Below, piece after piece: positions 7,934 through 36,143 of a DNA stretch of 36,603 nt. The position numbers and the translations under genes were made by a program. Each line of letters begins with the position of its first letter. Position 1 is the stretch's first letter. Below the pieces are notes generated by a model. The model saw nothing but the letters and a program-made list of their open reading frames with translations, did no database searches and had not been told where the DNA came from. This stretch comes from an uncultured Candidatus Saccharibacteria bacterium. Lineage in GTDB: Bacteria; Patescibacteriota; Minisyncoccia; Phycocordibacterales; UBA9973. The stretch lies in assembly GCA_964637995.1 (NCBI GenBank), contig CAZWXV010000001.1, positions 41,186-77,788 on the forward strand, given 5' to 3'.

Positions 7934-9850
7934 ATGAAGTTCGTAAGAAAAAACAAAAGAATAATCGTGTGGGCAGCTTTCCCGGTAGCCTTCGGGGTAT
8001 TGGTCTCTTCTTTTCTGTTCTCGTTTTTAAAAATCGGCAATGCTTTAGAAAATACAAAAAACGTGTTATTCGCGGTATCCATGGCGCCCGAAGAAAATCA
8101 GTCTGAAAAACCGCAATATTTTTACATAAACAAAAGCGAAGGCACAAAACCAAAAGTAAGCGCGCAGGCGTTCCTGGTCGGGGACTTGAAAACCGGCGAA
8201 GTTATCCTGTCGAAAAACCAAGAAACAAAATTCCCCATGGCATCGGTATCCAAGCTCATGACCGCGTTGGTTACGAGCGAGCTTGCGAAATCCGAGGATG
8301 TGGCCACGGTGAGTAAAAAAGCCATAGCCACTCTGGGCCAAAACGGCGAACTGCGGGCCGGGGAAAAAATAAAAGCCGCCGATCTCGTCTATCCCCTGCT
8401 CCTGGAGTCGTCAAACGACGCCGCGGAAGCACTCGCGGAACATTTCGGGCGGCAAAACTTTATGGATAAAATGAACCTGCAGGCGGAACAGCTTATGATG
8501 TCTTCCACGTCTTACGAAGATCCGAGCGGCCTTTCGCCAAATAATAAATCCACCGCCGCAGACCTGTTCAAGCTGGCTGGCTACATCGAAGAAAAACATG
8601 GGGAACTTTTTGACATTACTGCCAAGCGGAGCTATTCCGCGCCCAAGCACAACTGGTCCAACATCAGCCAGTTTTTGGGTAAGGACGGCTACTCCGGCGG
8701 GAAGAGCGGCTATACCGATGCCGCTCTCCAAAGCGGCGTGGCAATATTTGAATTGCCTTTGGGAGAATCCGGCACCCGGCCCATCGCTATCACCCTTCTC
8801 CGCAGTCTGGACCGCAAAAAGGACGTAGAGAATATTTTGAAATATTTGGGAAGCTACGTGTATTATGGCGGCAAGACCGACTCGGCACGGGCATGGGTAG
8901 AGGAGAAAGTCGGTATGCCACCGATATACGAACCATCTTTCGTAACTCTGTCTTTTCTGGGGGATATAATGCTGGACCGCGGAGTTCGGGGCTCGGTGGT
9001 CAAAAATTTTAAAAATGATTATTCCGCCCTTTTTGTAAAAATACCCCAGAAGCTCCTTAAGAATTCCGACATTGCGTTCGCGAACCTGGAAGGCACGGCC
9101 TCCGACCAGGGCGTAGACGGGAAAAATTTATATTCTTTCCGGATGGACCCGGGTGTAATCCCCGCTCTTGCCGGCGCAGGTCTTGATATCCTGTCCGTTG
9201 GGAACAACCATGTCGGCGACTGGGGGCGTTCCGCCTACGCAGATACTTTGTCACGCCTGAAGGAAAACGAGATTCTCTACACCGGCGGCGGCATGGGCGA
9301 AGCAGAAGCCGAAAAGCCGGTCATCATTGAAAAGTACAGCATGAAAATAGGATTTCTAGGATTTTCGGATGTAGGCCCCGCCTGGATGGAAGCGGGCAAG
9401 CAGAAGGCGGGTATGCCTGCGAAGGCAGGGCTGCTCCTTGCCAGCGACCCGCGTTTTGATGAAATCGTGCAAAATGCCGCCAGCCAAGTGGATTTTCTCA
9501 TCGTCTCCTTCCACTGGGGCGATGAATACCAGGCCAAACATAATGCCCGGCAGGAATATCTGGCACACCGCGCGGTGGACCATGGCGCGAAACTGATTAT
9601 CGGCCACCATCCTCATGTCGTCGAAGATACGGAAGTTTATAAAGAAAGTTTTATAGCTTATTCCCTTGGCAATTTCATCTTTGACCAATCATGGTCCAAG
9701 CCAACCATGCAAGGCATGCTCCTGCAGGTCAAGCTCTGGAAGGACGGCACGCTGGACGTAAAGAAAAACACCACCTACTTGAATTCCGTCTTTCAGCTCG
9801 ACCGCATAACGGAAGGCAAAGAGGAGAAAATAAAATTTCAGAATCCCTAG
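7934..9850 (+). CDS. Fusion protein: membrane-anchored D-alanyl-D-alanine carboxypeptidase (S11 PBP) plus a CapA/PGA_cap metallophosphoesterase-like domain
   Basis: An N-terminal TM helix is followed by the PBP triad SVSK (SxxK), SSND (SxN) and KSGYT (KTG-like). The C-terminal half carries the CapA blocks FANLEG, NNHVGDWG, VSFHWGDEY and IGHHPHV. Confidence 0.85.
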   Translation: MKFVRKNKRIIVWAAFPVAFGVLVSSFLFSFLKIGNALENTKNVLFAVSMAPEENQSEKPQYFYINKSEGTKPKVSAQAFLVGDLKTGEVILSKNQETKFPMASVSKLMTALVTSELAKSEDVATVSKKAIATLGQNGELRAGEKIKAADLVYPLLLESSNDAAEALAEHFGRQNFMDKMNLQAEQLMMSSTSYEDPSGLSPNNKSTAADLFKLAGYIEEKHGELFDITAKRSYSAPKHNWSNISQFLGKDGYSGGKSGYTDAALQSGVAIFELPLGESGTRPIAITLLRSLDRKKDVENILKYLGSYVYYGGKTDSARAWVEEKVGMPPIYEPSFVTLSFLGDIMLDRGVRGSVVKNFKNDYSALFVKIPQKLLKNSDIAFANLEGTASDQGVDGKNLYSFRMDPGVIPALAGAGLDILSVGNNHVGDWGRSAYADTLSRLKENEILYTGGGMGEAEAEKPVIIEKYSMKIGFLGFSDVGPAWMEAGKQKAGMPAKAGLLLASDPRFDEIVQNAASQVDFLIVSFHWGDEYQAKHNARQEYLAHRAVDHGAKLIIGHHPHVVEDTEVYKESFIAYSLGNFIFDQSWSKPTMQGMLLQVKLWKDGTLDVKKNTTYLNSVFQLDRITEGKEEKIKFQNP

Positions 9851-10052: not shown

Positions 10053-10667
10053 TCAGAAATTCGGAAGAATTTTTTTGAGCTTACTTTGTAAATCTTGTGC
10101 GGTGGTAAATAAAATACTTTCAATGCCTAGAGCTCTGGCCGCTTCTATATTCCTCTCATGGTCATCTATAAAAAGACATTCTTCGGGTTTTGCGTTCAGT
10201 TTTTGTAAAACTTTTTGAAATGCGGAGGGATGTGGTTTTGAAACTTTGTCTTCGTAGGAATACGAGAGTGCGTCAAACAATTTATGGAAGTCGAATTTCT
10301 TTTCCAGGTAATCAATCCACTCTTTGCCGTGAATTGATAAGATGGCAGTCTTATACCCAAGCTTTCTGACTTTTATAACAATGGCTCTAGTGCCTTCAAC
10401 TTCTCGAAAATTTTCCCTAAGATGGGCTTTTAAATATTCTTGGGTTCCTAGTTCAGGATATTGCCTCAGAACTGCCTCAAGATACGCATCCTCGCTGACA
10501 TTTCCAAGAAAAAGTTCCTCCACGATAGGAACAAGCAAGGGTGTCTTAAAGAGAGCATCACTGATTTTATGCTTTTCCTTTAGCGCAAGACCGGTATCTC
10601 GTATGCCGTGTATTAAAACTTCTCCTAAATCAAAAATTATATTCTTGATCTTGTTGTTTTGATGCAT
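10053..10667 (-). CDS. HAD-superfamily hydrolase
   Basis: Motif I is IIFDLGEVL and the C-terminal motif is LFIDDHERNIEAARALGI. The second motif-I Asp is replaced by Gly (DxG), so it may not be a classical phosphatase. Confidence 0.85.
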   Translation of the reverse strand: MHQNNKIKNIIFDLGEVLIHGIRDTGLALKEKHKISDALFKTPLLVPIVEELFLGNVSEDAYLEAVLRQYPELGTQEYLKAHLRENFREVEGTRAIVIKVRKLGYKTAILSIHGKEWIDYLEKKFDFHKLFDALSYSYEDKVSKPHPSAFQKVLQKLNAKPEECLFIDDHERNIEAARALGIESILFTTAQDLQSKLKKILPNF

Positions 10668-10672
10668 AATAT

Positions 10673-12814
10673 TTATTTCGCTATCTGGGTAGCTTCTTCG
10701 AATTTTACGGACAGGAGTTTGGAGGCGCCGTCGGATCCTATGGTGATGCCGTAGAGCACCCCGGCGCGAGACATGGTTTCGCGGTTGTGGGTAACCACGA
10801 TGAGCTGGGAGCGCTTGGAGAGTTTTTCCAGCATGTCACCGTATTTGCGCGAGTTCGCTTCATCAAGCGCGGCATCGGTCTCGTCTAAGATGAGGAACGG
10901 CGGCGGGTTGACCTGGGACATCGCAAAGAGAAGCGCGATGGAGGTGAGTGAGCGCTCGCCGCCGGAGAAAGCATGCAGGTCTTTTACCTTTTTATGGGGC
11001 AAGGACACGTTTATCTCTATGCCCTGCTCGGGCTCGCCTTCCTCTTCGCCCGCCAAAGCCTCAGCGTCGGCGGGTTCTTCATTCTCATCAAATTCTATTT
11101 TTCTTCTTCGCCTCATCTCGGTCACGACAGCGAGCGAAGCATGCCCGCCGCCGAAAAGTATCGCGAAAAATTCCTGGAATTCCTTGTTTATTTTTTTAAC
11201 ACCCTCTTTAAATTCTGTATCGATCTTTTCTTTAAGATCGGTTATGAGCACTTTAAGGGACTCTATGCTTTTTCCCAAGTCTTCCAGCTCTTTCTCAAGG
11301 AATCGGTCCCGTTCGGTTACCTCTCCATATTCTTTCATTAGTTCCGCGCCGCCGCCGATTCCAGTGTCTTCCAGTTTTATTTTAATGCGTTCTATTTTTT
11401 TCTTTAATTCTTCCTGGGTGGTATCTGTCTTCTGATTGTCTTTGTTATTTTTGTAAGCCAAAATATCCTCGCCCAGGAGGACACCGCCCTCTTTGAGCTC
11501 GCTCTCAAAAGCGTCTTTCCGTATCCTTAAATTTTCTTCTTTTATTTTGACCAGTTCCAGTGCGGAATGAACTTCCTGCTCTCTGACTTTCCAAGCAAAT
11601 TTCTCACGCTCCAGATCCCGCAGAGCCTCCATCTCTTTATTAATGTCCTGTTTGAAGTTTTCCGCAAGCGCCGCATTTTCTTTTTCTTCGTTTTCAACCC
11701 GTCTAATCTCCGCAAGAGTTGACGCCTGTGTTTTTTTGAGTTCTTCCAATTCCTCGGTTTCGTGCCGCTTTTTTTCCGACTGCTCCGGGTCGGTCTCCGC
11801 AATAACGCTACCGCACATTGGGCACCGGCCGGAAATCTTGGCCTTCCTGTCCCCGGCCTCTATCATGCCCTCTATACGTCCGATTTTGCGCTCAAGTTCG
11901 TTCTTCTCCGACCGTAAAGAGTTTACCTTCTGCTCGACGGCGCGGAGGTCCTCTATTTTCTTTCCGCCCGAAGCATCATTTTGATCTTCAGTCTTGGAAA
12001 TTTTCGCGCTTACTTCGCGAAGTTCGCCCGACAACCGCCCGTGCTCCGAGGCAAGCTCGTTTTTTTCGCTTTGCAGGTAAATTTCTTCTTTTTTCAGATA
12101 TTTCCCGTAAAGAGCGGATAGTTCGCTACGCATTTCTTTTGCGCGCTCGAGCTTTTCCACCTGCTTTTCCAGAAACTTAAGGTGTGGCGCGTTCTCGCGG
12201 CGGAGCAGGGTCACCTCCTTCATGTTCTCGTTCGTCCGTTCGAGCTTTCGTTCGCTTTCTTTTATTTTGTACTGGTAGATGCGGAGGCCCAGGGCGTCTT
12301 CCACCATTTCTTTCCTATCGCGCGCCGATGCGGAGAGAATTCTGTCCGCCTCGCCCTGCGAAATTATATGGTGCCCGGAAGAGCCGATGTGGACCGATGC
12401 GAGCAGGCCATGGATATCTTTGAGCCGGACCTCCGAGCCATTCAAAATGTACTTGTTGACTCCGTCGGAGTAAACCTCGCGTGAAATAGAAATGACGTCA
12501 TAATTTAAATTTATATCTTCTCCCGCGTCATTCCAGAGTTTGAAAATTTTATCAGCATTATTGAAATAAGCAGTGATGGACGCGCGCGTGCCACGTGAGA
12601 GATTCTTGGATCCTTTAAATACCAGGTCCGCACCGCCCTTGCCGCGCATGGATTTCATGGACTGCTCGCCCAGAACGAAACGCACCGCTTCCACCACATT
12701 GGACTTTCCGCTGCCGTTCGGACCCACTATGGCCACTATGGGGCTCTCGAACTCCAAGACCGTTTTATGGGCGAAAGATTTAAAACCGTTTAAGGAAAGC
12801 GTTTTGAGCCGCAT
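10673..12814 (-). CDS. smc: SMC-family chromosome partition ATPase, short and hinge-less, with a central CPxCG motif
   Basis: SMC head motifs GFKSF, GPNGSGKSN, FSGGERSL, FLILDETDAALDEAN and VVTHN are present. The position directly downstream of rnc is the classic rnc-smc order. The protein is 713 aa with CPMCG at residues 331-335. Confidence 0.85.
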   Translation of the reverse strand: MRLKTLSLNGFKSFAHKTVLEFESPIVAIVGPNGSGKSNVVEAVRFVLGEQSMKSMRGKGGADLVFKGSKNLSRGTRASITAYFNNADKIFKLWNDAGEDINLNYDVISISREVYSDGVNKYILNGSEVRLKDIHGLLASVHIGSSGHHIISQGEADRILSASARDRKEMVEDALGLRIYQYKIKESERKLERTNENMKEVTLLRRENAPHLKFLEKQVEKLERAKEMRSELSALYGKYLKKEEIYLQSEKNELASEHGRLSGELREVSAKISKTEDQNDASGGKKIEDLRAVEQKVNSLRSEKNELERKIGRIEGMIEAGDRKAKISGRCPMCGSVIAETDPEQSEKKRHETEELEELKKTQASTLAEIRRVENEEKENAALAENFKQDINKEMEALRDLEREKFAWKVREQEVHSALELVKIKEENLRIRKDAFESELKEGGVLLGEDILAYKNNKDNQKTDTTQEELKKKIERIKIKLEDTGIGGGAELMKEYGEVTERDRFLEKELEDLGKSIESLKVLITDLKEKIDTEFKEGVKKINKEFQEFFAILFGGGHASLAVVTEMRRRRKIEFDENEEPADAEALAGEEEGEPEQGIEINVSLPHKKVKDLHAFSGGERSLTSIALLFAMSQVNPPPFLILDETDAALDEANSRKYGDMLEKLSKRSQLIVVTHNRETMSRAGVLYGITIGSDGASKLLSVKFEEATQIAK

Positions 12815-12817
12815 ATT

Positions 12818-13513
12818 TTAGTCTGCCCAGTTTTTTGTTTTTAATGCTGCGAGCGCCGCCGCCTGTTCCGCCTCCTGTTTGGATTTGCCTTTCCCGAGCG
12901 CGATTTGTTCCGTATTGAAATAAATACCTACGGTAAAATGCTTGTCGTGGTCCGGGCCACGCTCCTCCAGAACTTTGTACATCGGAGTGCACTGTACAAA
13001 TTCCTGCGCTTTTTCCTGCACCAGGGACTTTGCGTCCCGCCAGAGCTTTTTATCCACTATTTCCTCCGTCTTGGGTAAAAGTGTTTCGGTAATGAAAAGA
13101 TCTGCGGCGGCATAGCCCTGGTCCATGTAAATCGCCCCGATAAGCGCTTCATAAGTATTTGCCAAGATGTACTGCCGGGCCTTGCCGCGATCTTTGGCTT
13201 CGCCCTTGGACAACAGTAGATAATCGTTCATGCCGATACTCTCCGCGACGCTTGAGATTATGACCGCGTTTACGAGGGCGGACCGAAGCGCGGTCAGCTC
13301 GCCTTCGGTATGATTGGGATACTTCTTGTAAAGAAAGTCTGTCACCGAAAGTTCCAGCACTGCATCGCCTAAAAATTCCAACCGCTCGTTGTGGGCAAGC
13401 GCGGAAGATTCGTTTTCGTTGATGTACGAACGGTGAATAAATGCCTGCCGGAGGAGGCCCTTGCTCTTAAAATTTACCTTTATTTTTTTCTCAAAATCTG
13501 CGAATTGGACCAT
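12818..13513 (-). CDS. rnc: Ribonuclease III
   Basis: The ERLEFLGDAVLEL signature is present, with a C-terminal dsRBD (GKGKSKQEAEQAAALAAL). Confidence 0.97.
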   Translation of the reverse strand: MVQFADFEKKIKVNFKSKGLLRQAFIHRSYINENESSALAHNERLEFLGDAVLELSVTDFLYKKYPNHTEGELTALRSALVNAVIISSVAESIGMNDYLLLSKGEAKDRGKARQYILANTYEALIGAIYMDQGYAAADLFITETLLPKTEEIVDKKLWRDAKSLVQEKAQEFVQCTPMYKVLEERGPDHDKHFTVGIYFNTEQIALGKGKSKQEAEQAAALAALKTKNWAD

Positions 13514-13524
13514 GGCGGTATTGT

Positions 13525-14442
13525 TTACTTCTTACTGATAATTTCTACCGCTTTGCCGATAAGCGGGATTATGTCGTTGTAAATGCGGAGCTCCGGGATA
13601 GCGGACACGGGAAACCAGCGAGCCCCATCAAGCCCGGTGGATTTCTCGAGCACAAGTTCCTTGTATTCGCTTCGCGCCAAAAAATATACCACTCGCTTCA
13701 AACTCTTGCCTTTTTCCGGGTGGGACGCCACATACTCGTTCTCTCCGAGTTTTTCTTCTATGTCGATGTCCAGCCCTATCTCCTCTTTTATCTCCCTCCT
13801 GGTTGCCTCTTCTTCGTTCTCATCTTCCGACATCCCACCCTTGGAAATGGTCCAGTAGCCGAAAACATCGTGCACCAGAGCAAACATCGCCACCCCGTCT
13901 TTGTGGGTATAGATAAGCGCTCCGCCTTTTTTATCCACCGGAAGCTTCGAGATGTCTACCGGTTCGTCTTTTTTCTTCTTGCGGCTCTGCTGGTCTTTGC
14001 CCGGCTCGCCGATTTCTTTGTAGACGGCACCCAGAACTCCATTCACAAATTTGCCGGAATTCTCACCGCCAAAAGTCTTCGCAAGCTCTATGGCTTCGTT
14101 GATGGCAACCTTGGGCGGCACTTCGGAGCTGTCACCGAAAAGAAGTTCCGTAAGCCCGATGCGTAAAATATTCCGGTCAATTACCGAAATTTTATCCAGA
14201 GGCCAGTCCGGCGCGGCTTTTTCTATTATCTCGTCCACCGTCGCGCGCTTCTTGAGTGTAAGTTCCAGGAGCGCGGACGCGAAAGGGTCCTCCTCGAAAC
14301 CGGGAGCAAATTCCACAAGATTCCTTTTTAAAGTATCTTTTATCTCGAGGTCGGAATTTGCGGGCTTTTGGTCAGCCGGCAAGAAATCCCATTCGAAAAG
14401 AGTTTGGAGCACTATTGACCTTGAAAGGTGCCGATTAGCCAT
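13525..14442 (-). CDS. nusB: Fusion protein: transcription antitermination factor NusB plus a Nudix hydrolase
   Basis: The N-terminal ~145 aa are NusB-like (SRSIVLQTLFEWDF, KVAINEAIELAKTFGGENSGKFVNGVLG). A Lys-rich linker follows. The C-terminal part has a perfect Nudix box, GGMSEDENEEEATRREIKEEIGL. Confidence 0.85.
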   Translation of the reverse strand: MANRHLSRSIVLQTLFEWDFLPADQKPANSDLEIKDTLKRNLVEFAPGFEEDPFASALLELTLKKRATVDEIIEKAAPDWPLDKISVIDRNILRIGLTELLFGDSSEVPPKVAINEAIELAKTFGGENSGKFVNGVLGAVYKEIGEPGKDQQSRKKKKDEPVDISKLPVDKKGGALIYTHKDGVAMFALVHDVFGYWTISKGGMSEDENEEEATRREIKEEIGLDIDIEEKLGENEYVASHPEKGKSLKRVVYFLARSEYKELVLEKSTGLDGARWFPVSAIPELRIYNDIIPLIGKAVEIISKK

Positions 14443-16841: not shown

Positions 16842-18940
<2,099 letters not shown>

Positions 18941-35576: not shown

Positions 35577-35577
<1 letters not shown>

Positions 35578-36143
35578 TATTGCATCCAATTAAACAAGGT
35601 CTCATAAAATTTAACCTCTTTGTTGCCCGAGCCCTGTGCCCAGTTGACGCTGACATACACTTCCATTTCATCGGCGGTAGTCTCCACTACTTGCATTCGT
35701 CGGCGAAAGCCGGTGTTCGCTCCGCCATAAATACTTATGTTGTAGGCGCCATTGTTGAGAAATAAGTCGCAGTTTTCCGGAGGGCATTGGAATACGGATC
35801 CGGCATCAGAGCCCGGGAGTAAAGGATCAACGCCGCAGGTGACCCCCACACAGGGCGCTAGTTTGGCTTTGAAGTCATCCCAACCATCTTGGCCACTTTG
35901 CGGGTGGTAAAGGGTATAGGTATCGCGTATGTTCCGGACATATTCTATCCCCTCCTGCGCGAGATATTCCCCCACCATTCTTTGCTTGGCGTAATTTATG
36001 TCGGCAATACCCTGGGACAAAACGCTTATAAGACCCAAAATGGACAGGGAAAAAATGGAAATGGCGACCAGGGTTTCAACCAAGGTAAACCCCGAATGAA
36101 CGGCCGTGAGCTTATTTTTGTTTTTTAAAAAAATTATTCTCAT
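35577..36143 (-). CDS. Type IV pilin-like protein (PilV/GspI-type minor pilin)
   Basis: The prepilin cleavage/methylation motif is HSG-FTLVETLVAISIFSLSILGL, with G-1, F+1 and E+5. Confidence 0.75.

Follow-up and report, generated by a model that had tools for sequence, protein, structure and literature searches.

Within the SMC superfamily, natural zinc hooks are documented for Rad50/SbcC, ASRP (ClsN/Sph) and many LmuB proteins, and SMC proper is described as hinge-bearing. A 2025 paper restated the division of the superfamily into "Hinge SMC" and "CxxC SMC" and regarded LmuB as Rad50/SbcC-derived. In this study, a stretch of 36,603 nucleotides (nt) of contig CAZWXV010000001.1 was analyzed (the 36.6-kb window, whose numbering is used throughout). 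Its smc gene (10673..12814, minus strand, stop codon 10673-10675) was identified from the list of open reading frames (ORFs) and from profile scores. It encodes a hinge-less mini-SMC of 713 amino acids (aa) with a CPxCG motif at its apex. All parts of the protein described below are encoded on the minus strand.

One system for comparison is B. subtilis Smc, which has arms of ~344 residues and 47 nm (PMC5344682). A B. subtilis chimera, Smc(Zh), in which the hinge was swapped for the P. furiosus Rad50 hook, supported normal growth, so the dimerization domain's fold was not critical (Buermann et al. 2017, PMC5344682). Shortened Smc arms (Mini-Smc constructs) worked in particular length windows, and a survey of natural arm lengths gave major modes of 238, 341 and 515 aa and "possibly" a minor mode of 163 aa (PMC5344682). 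The survey located the hinge to measure the arms and therefore could not have measured hinge-less proteins. Hook-hinge swaps of cohesin and Rad50 have also been engineered (PMC6969161). ASRP proteins (ClsN/coalescin, Sph1/2) are ~600 aa long and chromosome-associated, with short arms and a zinc-hook motif replacing the hinge (PMC9389158). LmuB proteins are ~650 aa long with ~20-nm arms; many members carry CPxCG, and the Walker B Glu is usually changed to Gln.

The mini-SMC was compared with each of these systems. It is like bacterial Smc in its catalytic head motifs, its conserved neck, its predicted antiparallel intramolecular coiled coil and its position after rnc. It differs from bacterial Smc in the absence of a hinge, in its CPxCG apex, in its length (713 versus ~1,186 aa) and in its predicted arm of ~150 versus ~344 paired residues (~22 versus ~47 nm). 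With the Smc(Zh) chimera it shares SMC heads, shortened arms and a hook of the Rad50 type. The chimera is a laboratory construct with an archaeal hook, whereas the mini-SMC is natural and fixed in ~60 species-level genomes. Its arms are shorter than the major natural modes of the survey and lie near the tentative 163-aa mode. As in Rad50/SbcC, each chain has two Cys, and CPxCG occupies a short loop that caps the antiparallel coiled coil; unlike Rad50/SbcC, the heads score at most 65 bits on Rad50 models, and there is no Mre11/SbcD gene nearby. The mini-SMC is short-armed with a hook motif in place of the hinge, like ASRP, but ASRP proteins are archaeal with divergent heads, and the mini-SMC is bacterial with bona fide Smc heads. 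All matches to its family were from Patescibacteria. In size, hook and full-length PADLOC alignment it is similar to LmuB. It differs from LmuB in having the Walker B Glu, in the absence of LmuA/LmuC and of a defense island, and in not being Rad50/SbcC-derived.

The results suggested, with a probability that we put at roughly 0.7, that the protein is the chromosomal orthologue of Smc in one of the Paceibacteria of Nomurabacteria type (Patescibacteria, Candidate Phyla Radiation (CPR)). It would have been stripped to a mini-SMC that forms an apex hook-tethered dimer and acts like Smc-ScpAB.

Heads, arms and the missing hinge

The two halves of the ATPase head lie at the two ends of the chain. 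The N-terminal half (residues ~1-170, 12305..12814) was assigned by its motifs and by alignment to residues 2-197 of the Bacillus Smc head 3ZGX. It contains GFKSF at residue 10, the Walker A motif GPNGSGKSN (residues 31-39, 12698-12724) and the Q-loop SQG (residues 152-154, 12353-12361). The C-terminal half (residues 555-713, 10676..11152) contains the signature FSGGERSL (residues 616-623, 10946-10969), the Walker B/D-loop stretch FLILDETDAALDEAN (residues 640-654, 10853-10897) with the catalytic Glu intact (LDE), and the H-loop VVTHN (residues 673-677, 10784-10798). All were located by motif search, and every motif quoted in the initial annotation (GFKSF, GPNGSGKSN, FSGGERSL, VVTHN and the Walker B stretch) was found at its place. 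As far as the motifs indicate, nothing suggests an inactive ATPase, the Walker B glutamate being intact. Just after the FGGG strand of the C-terminal half there is an acidic, low-complexity insert (residues ~567-593, RRRRKIEFDENEEPADAEALAGEEEGEPEQ, 11036-11116). Its length varies among relatives, and its predicted local distance difference test (pLDDT) value was below 50 in the AlphaFold2 (AF2) model.

The family membership of the heads was investigated with profiles and structures. Pfam SMC_N spanned residues 3-698 with 191 bits, and the NCBIfam model TIGR02168 (SMC_prok_B) gave 506.2 bits. Rad50 models gave 30-65 bits against NCBIfam cut-offs of 700-1087, the ASRP model NF045487 gave 54.5 bits against a cut-off of 300, and the RecN model TIGR00634 gave 47.5 bits against a cut-off of 408. 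The best sequence matches in the PDB were the Smc heads of Bacillus (8e-75), Geobacillus, Pyrococcus and Thermotoga. Alignment to the Bacillus Smc head scored 130 bits for the N-terminal half and 104 bits for the C-terminal half, the latter over residues 597-710 and the C-head. In a Foldseek search with the AF2 model, SMC head and coiled-coil structures were on top (5XEI, 1.7e-24), and Rad50 first appeared at rank 12. The heads are SMC-type and not Rad50-type, as had been claimed from the motifs (506 bits on SMC_prok_B against 50-65 on Rad50).

Between the head halves, AF2 and the sequence periodicity indicated two long arms. The N-terminal arm helix comprises residues 178-326 (11837..12283; ~149 residues, ~22 nm) with a short break at 278-282. 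The C-terminal arm helices comprise residues 343-456, 467-484 and 489-554 (11153..11788). The mean pLDDT of the AF2 full model was 68, with 80-90 in the arms; the heads were poorly modeled from the shallow alignment. In protein numbering, the modeled helices were 178-277, 283-326, 343-456, 467-484 and 489-554, and the sole break at the fold-back point was a 16-residue loop (327-342). The modeled C-terminal arm is broken at 457-466 and 485-488, possibly by a joint-like discontinuity. The final ~40 residues of this arm packed into the head in the model, and residues 474-563 aligned to the head-proximal coil of Bacillus Smc. A hydrophobic periodicity of ~3.5 residues was present in both arms; the observed power was reached by 0/300 shuffles for the N arm and 5/300 for the C arm. 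The heptad-like periodicity and the long AF2 helices agreed with the coiled-coil arms proposed in the initial annotation, and the model predicts a paired arm of ~150 residues and ~22 nm.

No match to Pfam SMC_hinge (PF06470) or to another globular mid-domain was obtained in the protein at E<=10, and ten diverse family members likewise gave no SMC_hinge match. Since AF2 also has only the 16-residue loop between the arms, the proposed absence of a hinge was upheld.

The arm length is nearly fixed in the 177 hook-type (short-apex) sequences. The distance from the Q-loop SQG to the first apex Cys was 179 aa in 141/177, and that from the second Cys to the FGGG strand was 220-221 aa in 121/177 (221 aa in the window protein). 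Conservation was 0.74 in the N-neck and 0.62 in the C-neck, versus 0.41-0.44 in the distal arms; the head-proximal neck was as conserved as the heads.

The CPxCG apex

The apex loop (residues 327-342, 11789..11836) is the only non-helical segment between the arms in the AF2 full model, and it recurred in a separate apex model (pLDDT 88). The loop contains CPMCG (residues 331-335, 11810..11824), which would, judging by motif, profile and Foldseek, supply one half of a Zn(Cys)4 site between subunits. CPMCG holds both cysteines of the protein and there are no others, exactly as first described. The chance that two randomly placed cysteines in 713 aa fall at i,i+3 is p = 0.0028. Among the 120 best relatives, CP[LMTV]CG was present in 120/120 and exactly two Cys in 108/120. 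All 177 hook-type sequences, among them those of the ~60 species-level genomes, kept CP[LMTV]CG, and the surrounding arm was variable.

The apex was compared with known structures. With one 76-aa apex peptide as query, the Pyrococcus furiosus Rad50 hooks 1L8D and 6ZFF were the first matches in the PDB, with a marginal E of 0.05-0.09. A profile of 18 sequences (residues 286-421) was searched against 177,635 PDB sequences. The same two hooks were ranks 1 and 2 (1L8D 5.9e-05, 6ZFF 2.1e-04), and the next match was at 0.049. The alignment covered G[RK]CP[LV]CG.E[IL] and both flanking helices. When the 18 apex segments were scanned alone, 10 of them matched Pfam Rad50_zn_hook (PF04423), with a best E of 3e-04, the lowest of any family. 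One distant relative, P0169, scored 14.4 bits on this family against a cut-off of 24.3.

The apex model (residues 286-421, pLDDT 88) consisted of a helix, a 16-residue loop and a helix. A Foldseek search of 350,542 PDB chains with this model gave chains A and B of 1L8D as the top matches. The template modeling score was 0.77-0.80 (normalized by target length) and the root-mean-square deviation was 3.1-3.3 Å over 103 columns. In motif and position, and also in its flanks and predicted fold, the apex resembles a hook. The claim that it carries the Rad50/SbcC hook signature was thus supported by both the profile and the Foldseek matches to 1L8D, the former extending to 6ZFF.

In the Rad50 hook, the metal is coordinated by four Cys from two chains. 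Since each chain of the mini-SMC offers two, two chains would, by analogy, share one Zn2+ at the apex. A zinc hook probably joins the two arms in place of the hinge.

The following mechanism is proposed. Each chain would fold back and bring its N- and C-terminal halves together as a single ABC ATPase head of the SMC type. The helices of ~150 residues would pair as an antiparallel coiled-coil arm of ~22 nm, about half the canonical length, with the 16-residue CPxCG loop as the tip. One Zn2+ would be shared between two apex loops, in the manner of Rad50/SbcC, making the homodimer constitutive; a tetrahedral zinc site would need two chains because each has only two cysteines. The heads would engage and disengage with ATP, for which Walker A, Q-loop, signature, Walker B Glu and H-loop are intact. 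The ring or rod would act on chromosomal DNA like Smc-ScpAB, the kleisin presumably sitting on the conserved neck and on the cap. In canonical Smc, the kleisin N-domain binds the head-proximal neck (structure 3ZGX). We infer that the activity would be ATP-driven DNA loop extrusion or segregation with ScpA/ScpB partners.

Apex modules in the wider family

A large family of mini-SMCs, ~750 aa long and hinge-less, includes the hook form as one branch. An exhaustive search of 1.84 billion proteins was used to draw the best 150 cluster representatives (42-68% identity). Full-length representatives had 643-797 aa, and two shorter ones were fragments. Apex CxxC was present in seven (CPVCG, CPLCG, CIYCA, CRTCK, CRYCG, CGYCG and CAACG) and in none of the rest, many of which had no cysteine at all. 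These non-CxxC members carry an insert of 45-60 aa at the same apex point, seemingly two amphipathic helices. Most of the proteins P0121-P0270, which represent this wider family of ~750 aa, had the helical module and no CxxC.

The apex profile was also used to scan GTDB with one genome per species. A total of 80 loci was obtained, ~60 with the hook form (CP[LMTV]CG) and 17 with the cysteine-free form. The cysteine-free ORFs had 742-757 aa, and one of the 17 (L087) was a 610-aa fragment cut by a short contig. The loci with a helical apex were L071-L073, L075-L078 and L080-L088 (for example, the SMC ORF L077:9146-11383). The scanned loci were labeled Nomurabacteria, Paceibacterota, Minisyncoccia or Patescibacteria, besides generic and some auto-assigned "Saccharibacteria" labels.

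The nature of the helical module was investigated. It was considered as a degenerate hinge and rejected, as Pfam gave no hinge and the PDB matches of its profile were all helical bundles, either designed or generic. Homology to the hook was also rejected. An hhalign comparison paired only 31 shared pre-apex columns (including GR[IL]EG) and ended where the modules begin. Hinges are absent throughout the family, whose common arm bears at least two alternative modules at the apex.

A neighbor-joining (NJ) tree was built from heads and arms with the apex masked and 60 bootstraps. One clade of 90 leaves, 74 hook and 16 helical, contained all CPxCG hooks except that of P0169, which is labeled Candidatus Vogelbacteria. 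Outside this clade the helical form predominated. Mean distances were 0.292 between hook forms, 0.268 between helical forms and 0.292 between hook and helical forms, with 0.66 to the outgroup. Neither apex type was monophyletic (0/60 bootstraps), and outside the apex flanks no column was diagnostic of apex type. The change of apex left no visible mark on the rest of the protein. No short-apex sequence lacked CxxC, and in our reading the motif was replaced in relatives by a different module rather than lost.

A clean evolutionary polarity between hook and helical forms was sought and not obtained, given the absence of monophyly in the NJ tree and the equal distances within and between types. 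The radiation is star-like, so that one switch is indistinguishable from several. Variant apex motifs occurred in distant lineages of 44-51% identity (CIYCA, CRTCK, CRYCG, CPVCG, CAACG and CGYCG in P0141, P0153, P0156, P0169, P0182 and P0210). These lineages sit at at least four places in the tree, and there may have been more than one origin or exchange of hooks. We tentatively propose, at somewhat less than even odds, that the apex dimerization module in Paceibacteria is an exchangeable cassette. A Rad50-type hook and an unrelated helical module of ~50 aa, neither of them a hinge, would have replaced each other, possibly several times, on predicted arms of ~22 nm, with heads and arms otherwise indistinguishable.

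A short motif stands ahead of the apex in both forms. GRIEG (residues 312-316, 11867..11881), or GR[IL]EG in the family, lies ~15 residues before the apex. Its E315 and G316 are at least 90% conserved in hook and helical-apex forms, in the midst of a variable distal arm. The motif could serve to kink the helix, to mark the register or to delimit an exchangeable cassette.

Competing readings, locus and meaning

Several observations weigh against a hook-tethered Smc orthologue. The score of 506 bits is below the TIGR02168 equivalog cut-off of 567.35 bits, and orthology therefore rests on heads and synteny; the missing hinge and the half-length arms could account for the shortfall. On the proposed scan with Rad50_zn_hook the outcome was divided: the apex segments of 10 of the 18 relatives matched, but the best match of the family (3e-04) was sub-threshold, and the CPMCG variant of the window protein gave no match even at E<=10. 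The Foldseek E of the hook match was only 0.05, and helical hairpins are common. Retention of CxxC in close orthologues held for the 120 best relatives and for all 177 short-apex sequences but not for the whole of the closest clade. There, 16/90 were without it, and the apex was at least 20 aa longer with a different helical module. As very close relatives do without CxxC, the hook is not the only workable apex.

The expected partners were also searched for. All ORFs and six-frame fragments of 93 sources (1.56 Mb) were searched by phmmer with B. subtilis ScpA and ScpB and with a five-sequence ScpB hidden Markov model. The queries were checked against the PDB, and positive controls gave 1e-40. 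Neither the sequence up to ~10 kb from smc in the window, nor another 10 kb of the contig (beyond rpoB), nor ~85 related loci gave ScpA/ScpB, which also counts against the proposed orthologue. Unannotated window ORFs scanned with relaxed Pfam thresholds gave one pilin-like protein and no Scp. Viral contigs gave two ScpBs only, on high-GC non-CPR contigs. All the loci searched represent the same syntenic region, and the result thus shows only that scpAB is unlinked to smc.

One alternative is that CxxC is not an inter-subunit zinc site. The motif would then serve as a structural turn, as a disulfide or redox switch, or as the site of another ligand, and the dimer would form only through arm-arm or head contacts. 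The sub-threshold Pfam matches fit this alternative, as does the fact that sisters with a cysteine-free helical apex evidently function; in addition, the arms of canonical SMC co-align into rods. However, Rad50 has this same arrangement of exactly two Cys per chain at i,i+3, in a loop that is flanked by Pro and Gly and caps an antiparallel coiled coil. The likeness reaches into the flanks (G[RK]CPxCG.E[IL]) with a profile E of 5.9e-05, and the motif stays invariant where the surrounding arm varies. A single CxxC cannot complete a tetrahedral site in one chain. We regard this alternative as unlikely.

A repair or end-processing ATPase, analogous to Rad50/SbcC or RecN, was likewise considered. 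Its heads would be merely SMC-like, and DNA ends would be tethered by its hook, as they are in Mre11-Rad50. In favor of this reading, hooks otherwise characterize the repair and defense branch of the superfamily, RecN and LmuB typically have short arms, the search near the gene gave no ScpAB, and the window contains an AddA-like helicase-nuclease at a distance of 12 kb. Set against these points, the Rad50 and RecN models gave 47-65 bits versus 506 for SMC_prok_B, and both head halves were near Bacillus Smc over the Walker and signature regions. The gene holds the rnc-smc position of canonical smc. No SbcD/Mre11 phosphoesterase was found in the window or its flanks, nor within 10 kb of smc in ~85 loci. 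A repair function of this kind is improbable.

A mobile defense ATPase like Lamassu LmuB, MADS mad3 or Wadjet JetC is very improbable. PADLOC gave mad3 with 202 bits (head only) and LmuB with 104 bits over the full length. Some LmuB proteins are ~650 aa long with short arms and a CPxCG hook, and the LmuB structure 9HQU was at rank 5 in the apex fold search. The SMC equivalog score, however, was 2.5 to 5 times higher, and the Walker B Glu is intact where LmuB typically has Gln. No LmuA/LmuC or other defense genes were found near smc in the window, where the neighbors form a core housekeeping operon. Unlike patchy defense islands, the gene occupies the same syntenic locus in ~80 species-level genomes.

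An artefact, either an assembly or binning deletion of the hinge or a decaying pseudogene, might be suspected for a sequence from a metagenome-assembled genome whose product is under the annotation cut-off and often named only 'AAA family ATPase', but it is excluded by the identical gene with identical neighbors in GCA_001002215.1 and three independent ENA assemblies (at least four assemblies), by the 706-735 aa of all of the best 120 relatives (69-100% identity), by more than 170 intact relatives with fixed arm lengths, by the shortness of all of the best 150 representatives and by the strong conservation of heads and necks. The short length is therefore no assembly deletion.

The hook-tethered Smc orthologue thus keeps its place as the preferred reading, and the locus was examined with it. 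The gene is part of a tightly packed string of rpmF (L32), the nusB-NUDIX fusion gene, rnc, smc and a HAD hydrolase gene. rnc (12818..13513, minus strand; RNase III domains and dsrm) lies directly upstream of smc with a 3-nt gap, and the annotated 713-aa ORF directly after rnc was confirmed at 10673..12814. The nusB-NUDIX fusion gene (13525..14442, minus strand) is a further upstream member of the string L32, nusB, rnc, smc. This string was conserved in relatives of 71-74% identity, and the rnc-smc order was kept in the related loci L005-L008. The gene of the HAD-family hydrolase (10053..10667, minus strand) lies 5 nt downstream of smc. The place downstream of smc varies, with the HAD hydrolase in the window and a pilin-like gene or maf in relatives. 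Since this position is not conserved, the HAD hydrolase is no dedicated partner of the mini-SMC. The remaining window is ordinary core chromosome with rpoB, trmD, rpsP, RNase R, gyrB, pheST, proABC, the AddA-like helicase-nuclease, truB and ligA.

Some further features of the region were observed. NusB is joined to a C-terminal NUDIX hydrolase domain in a protein of 305 aa (13525-14442, minus strand), and the fusion was kept at the same position in L005 and L008. A 638-aa protein (7934-9850, plus strand) combines a D-Ala-D-Ala carboxypeptidase (Peptidase_S11) and a PGA_cap capsule-synthesis domain in one chain; it was conserved beside RNase R in relatives. gyrB is one 693-aa gene in the window (16842-18923) and in the remaining assemblies, and one of the organism's ENA assemblies (L001:3882-5973) has it split into two genes of 482 and 202 aa. 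The split is probably a frameshift or an assembly difference. The region repeatedly encodes small pilin-like proteins whose N-terminus has a methylation motif (PF07963; window 35577-36143, minus strand; L005:12190-12711). In one relative, such a pilin-like gene takes the place of the HAD hydrolase gene immediately after smc.

The hinge/CxxC classification reportedly goes back to Krishnan et al. 2020 (Nucleic Acids Research 48:10045). No description of a natural hook-SMC or of a hinge-less SMC in Patescibacteria, CPR or Parcubacteria was found in the literature, although that work might mention such proteins. The combination of SMC heads with a hook had been called a hybrid not known to be characterized, and indeed only engineered chimeras were found. 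The parts are all known, unlike the natural combination and the hinge-less family. The identical protein is already present in NCBI, where its relatives are mostly named 'AAA family ATPase'. Such names and the score under the cut-off may explain why mini-SMCs went unnoticed, and annotation-based surveys would count these genomes as being without SMC.

The mini-SMC joins bona fide Smc heads, neck and gene position with an apex of the CxxC branch and with half-length arms. It is fixed in many species of one of the largest bacterial radiations. The hosts are a large group of tiny groundwater bacteria, and their protein would be a natural counterpart of the laboratory-built chimera. The main prior evidence for a dispensable hinge fold was the engineered B. 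subtilis chimera. The finding bears on models of loop extrusion, namely on the hinge as DNA binder or gate, on elbow folding, on hinge-head contacts and on the constraint of arm length. The compact hook-SMC (2 x 713 aa) and its helical-apex sisters would be attractive for cryo-electron microscopy and single-molecule assays, and the protein would, if the reading is true, be a minimal SMC of ~700 aa. If mini-SMCs are the sole condensins of these bacteria, chromosome organization would need a stable apex tether and not a hinge, hinge-DNA contacts or ~50-nm arms.

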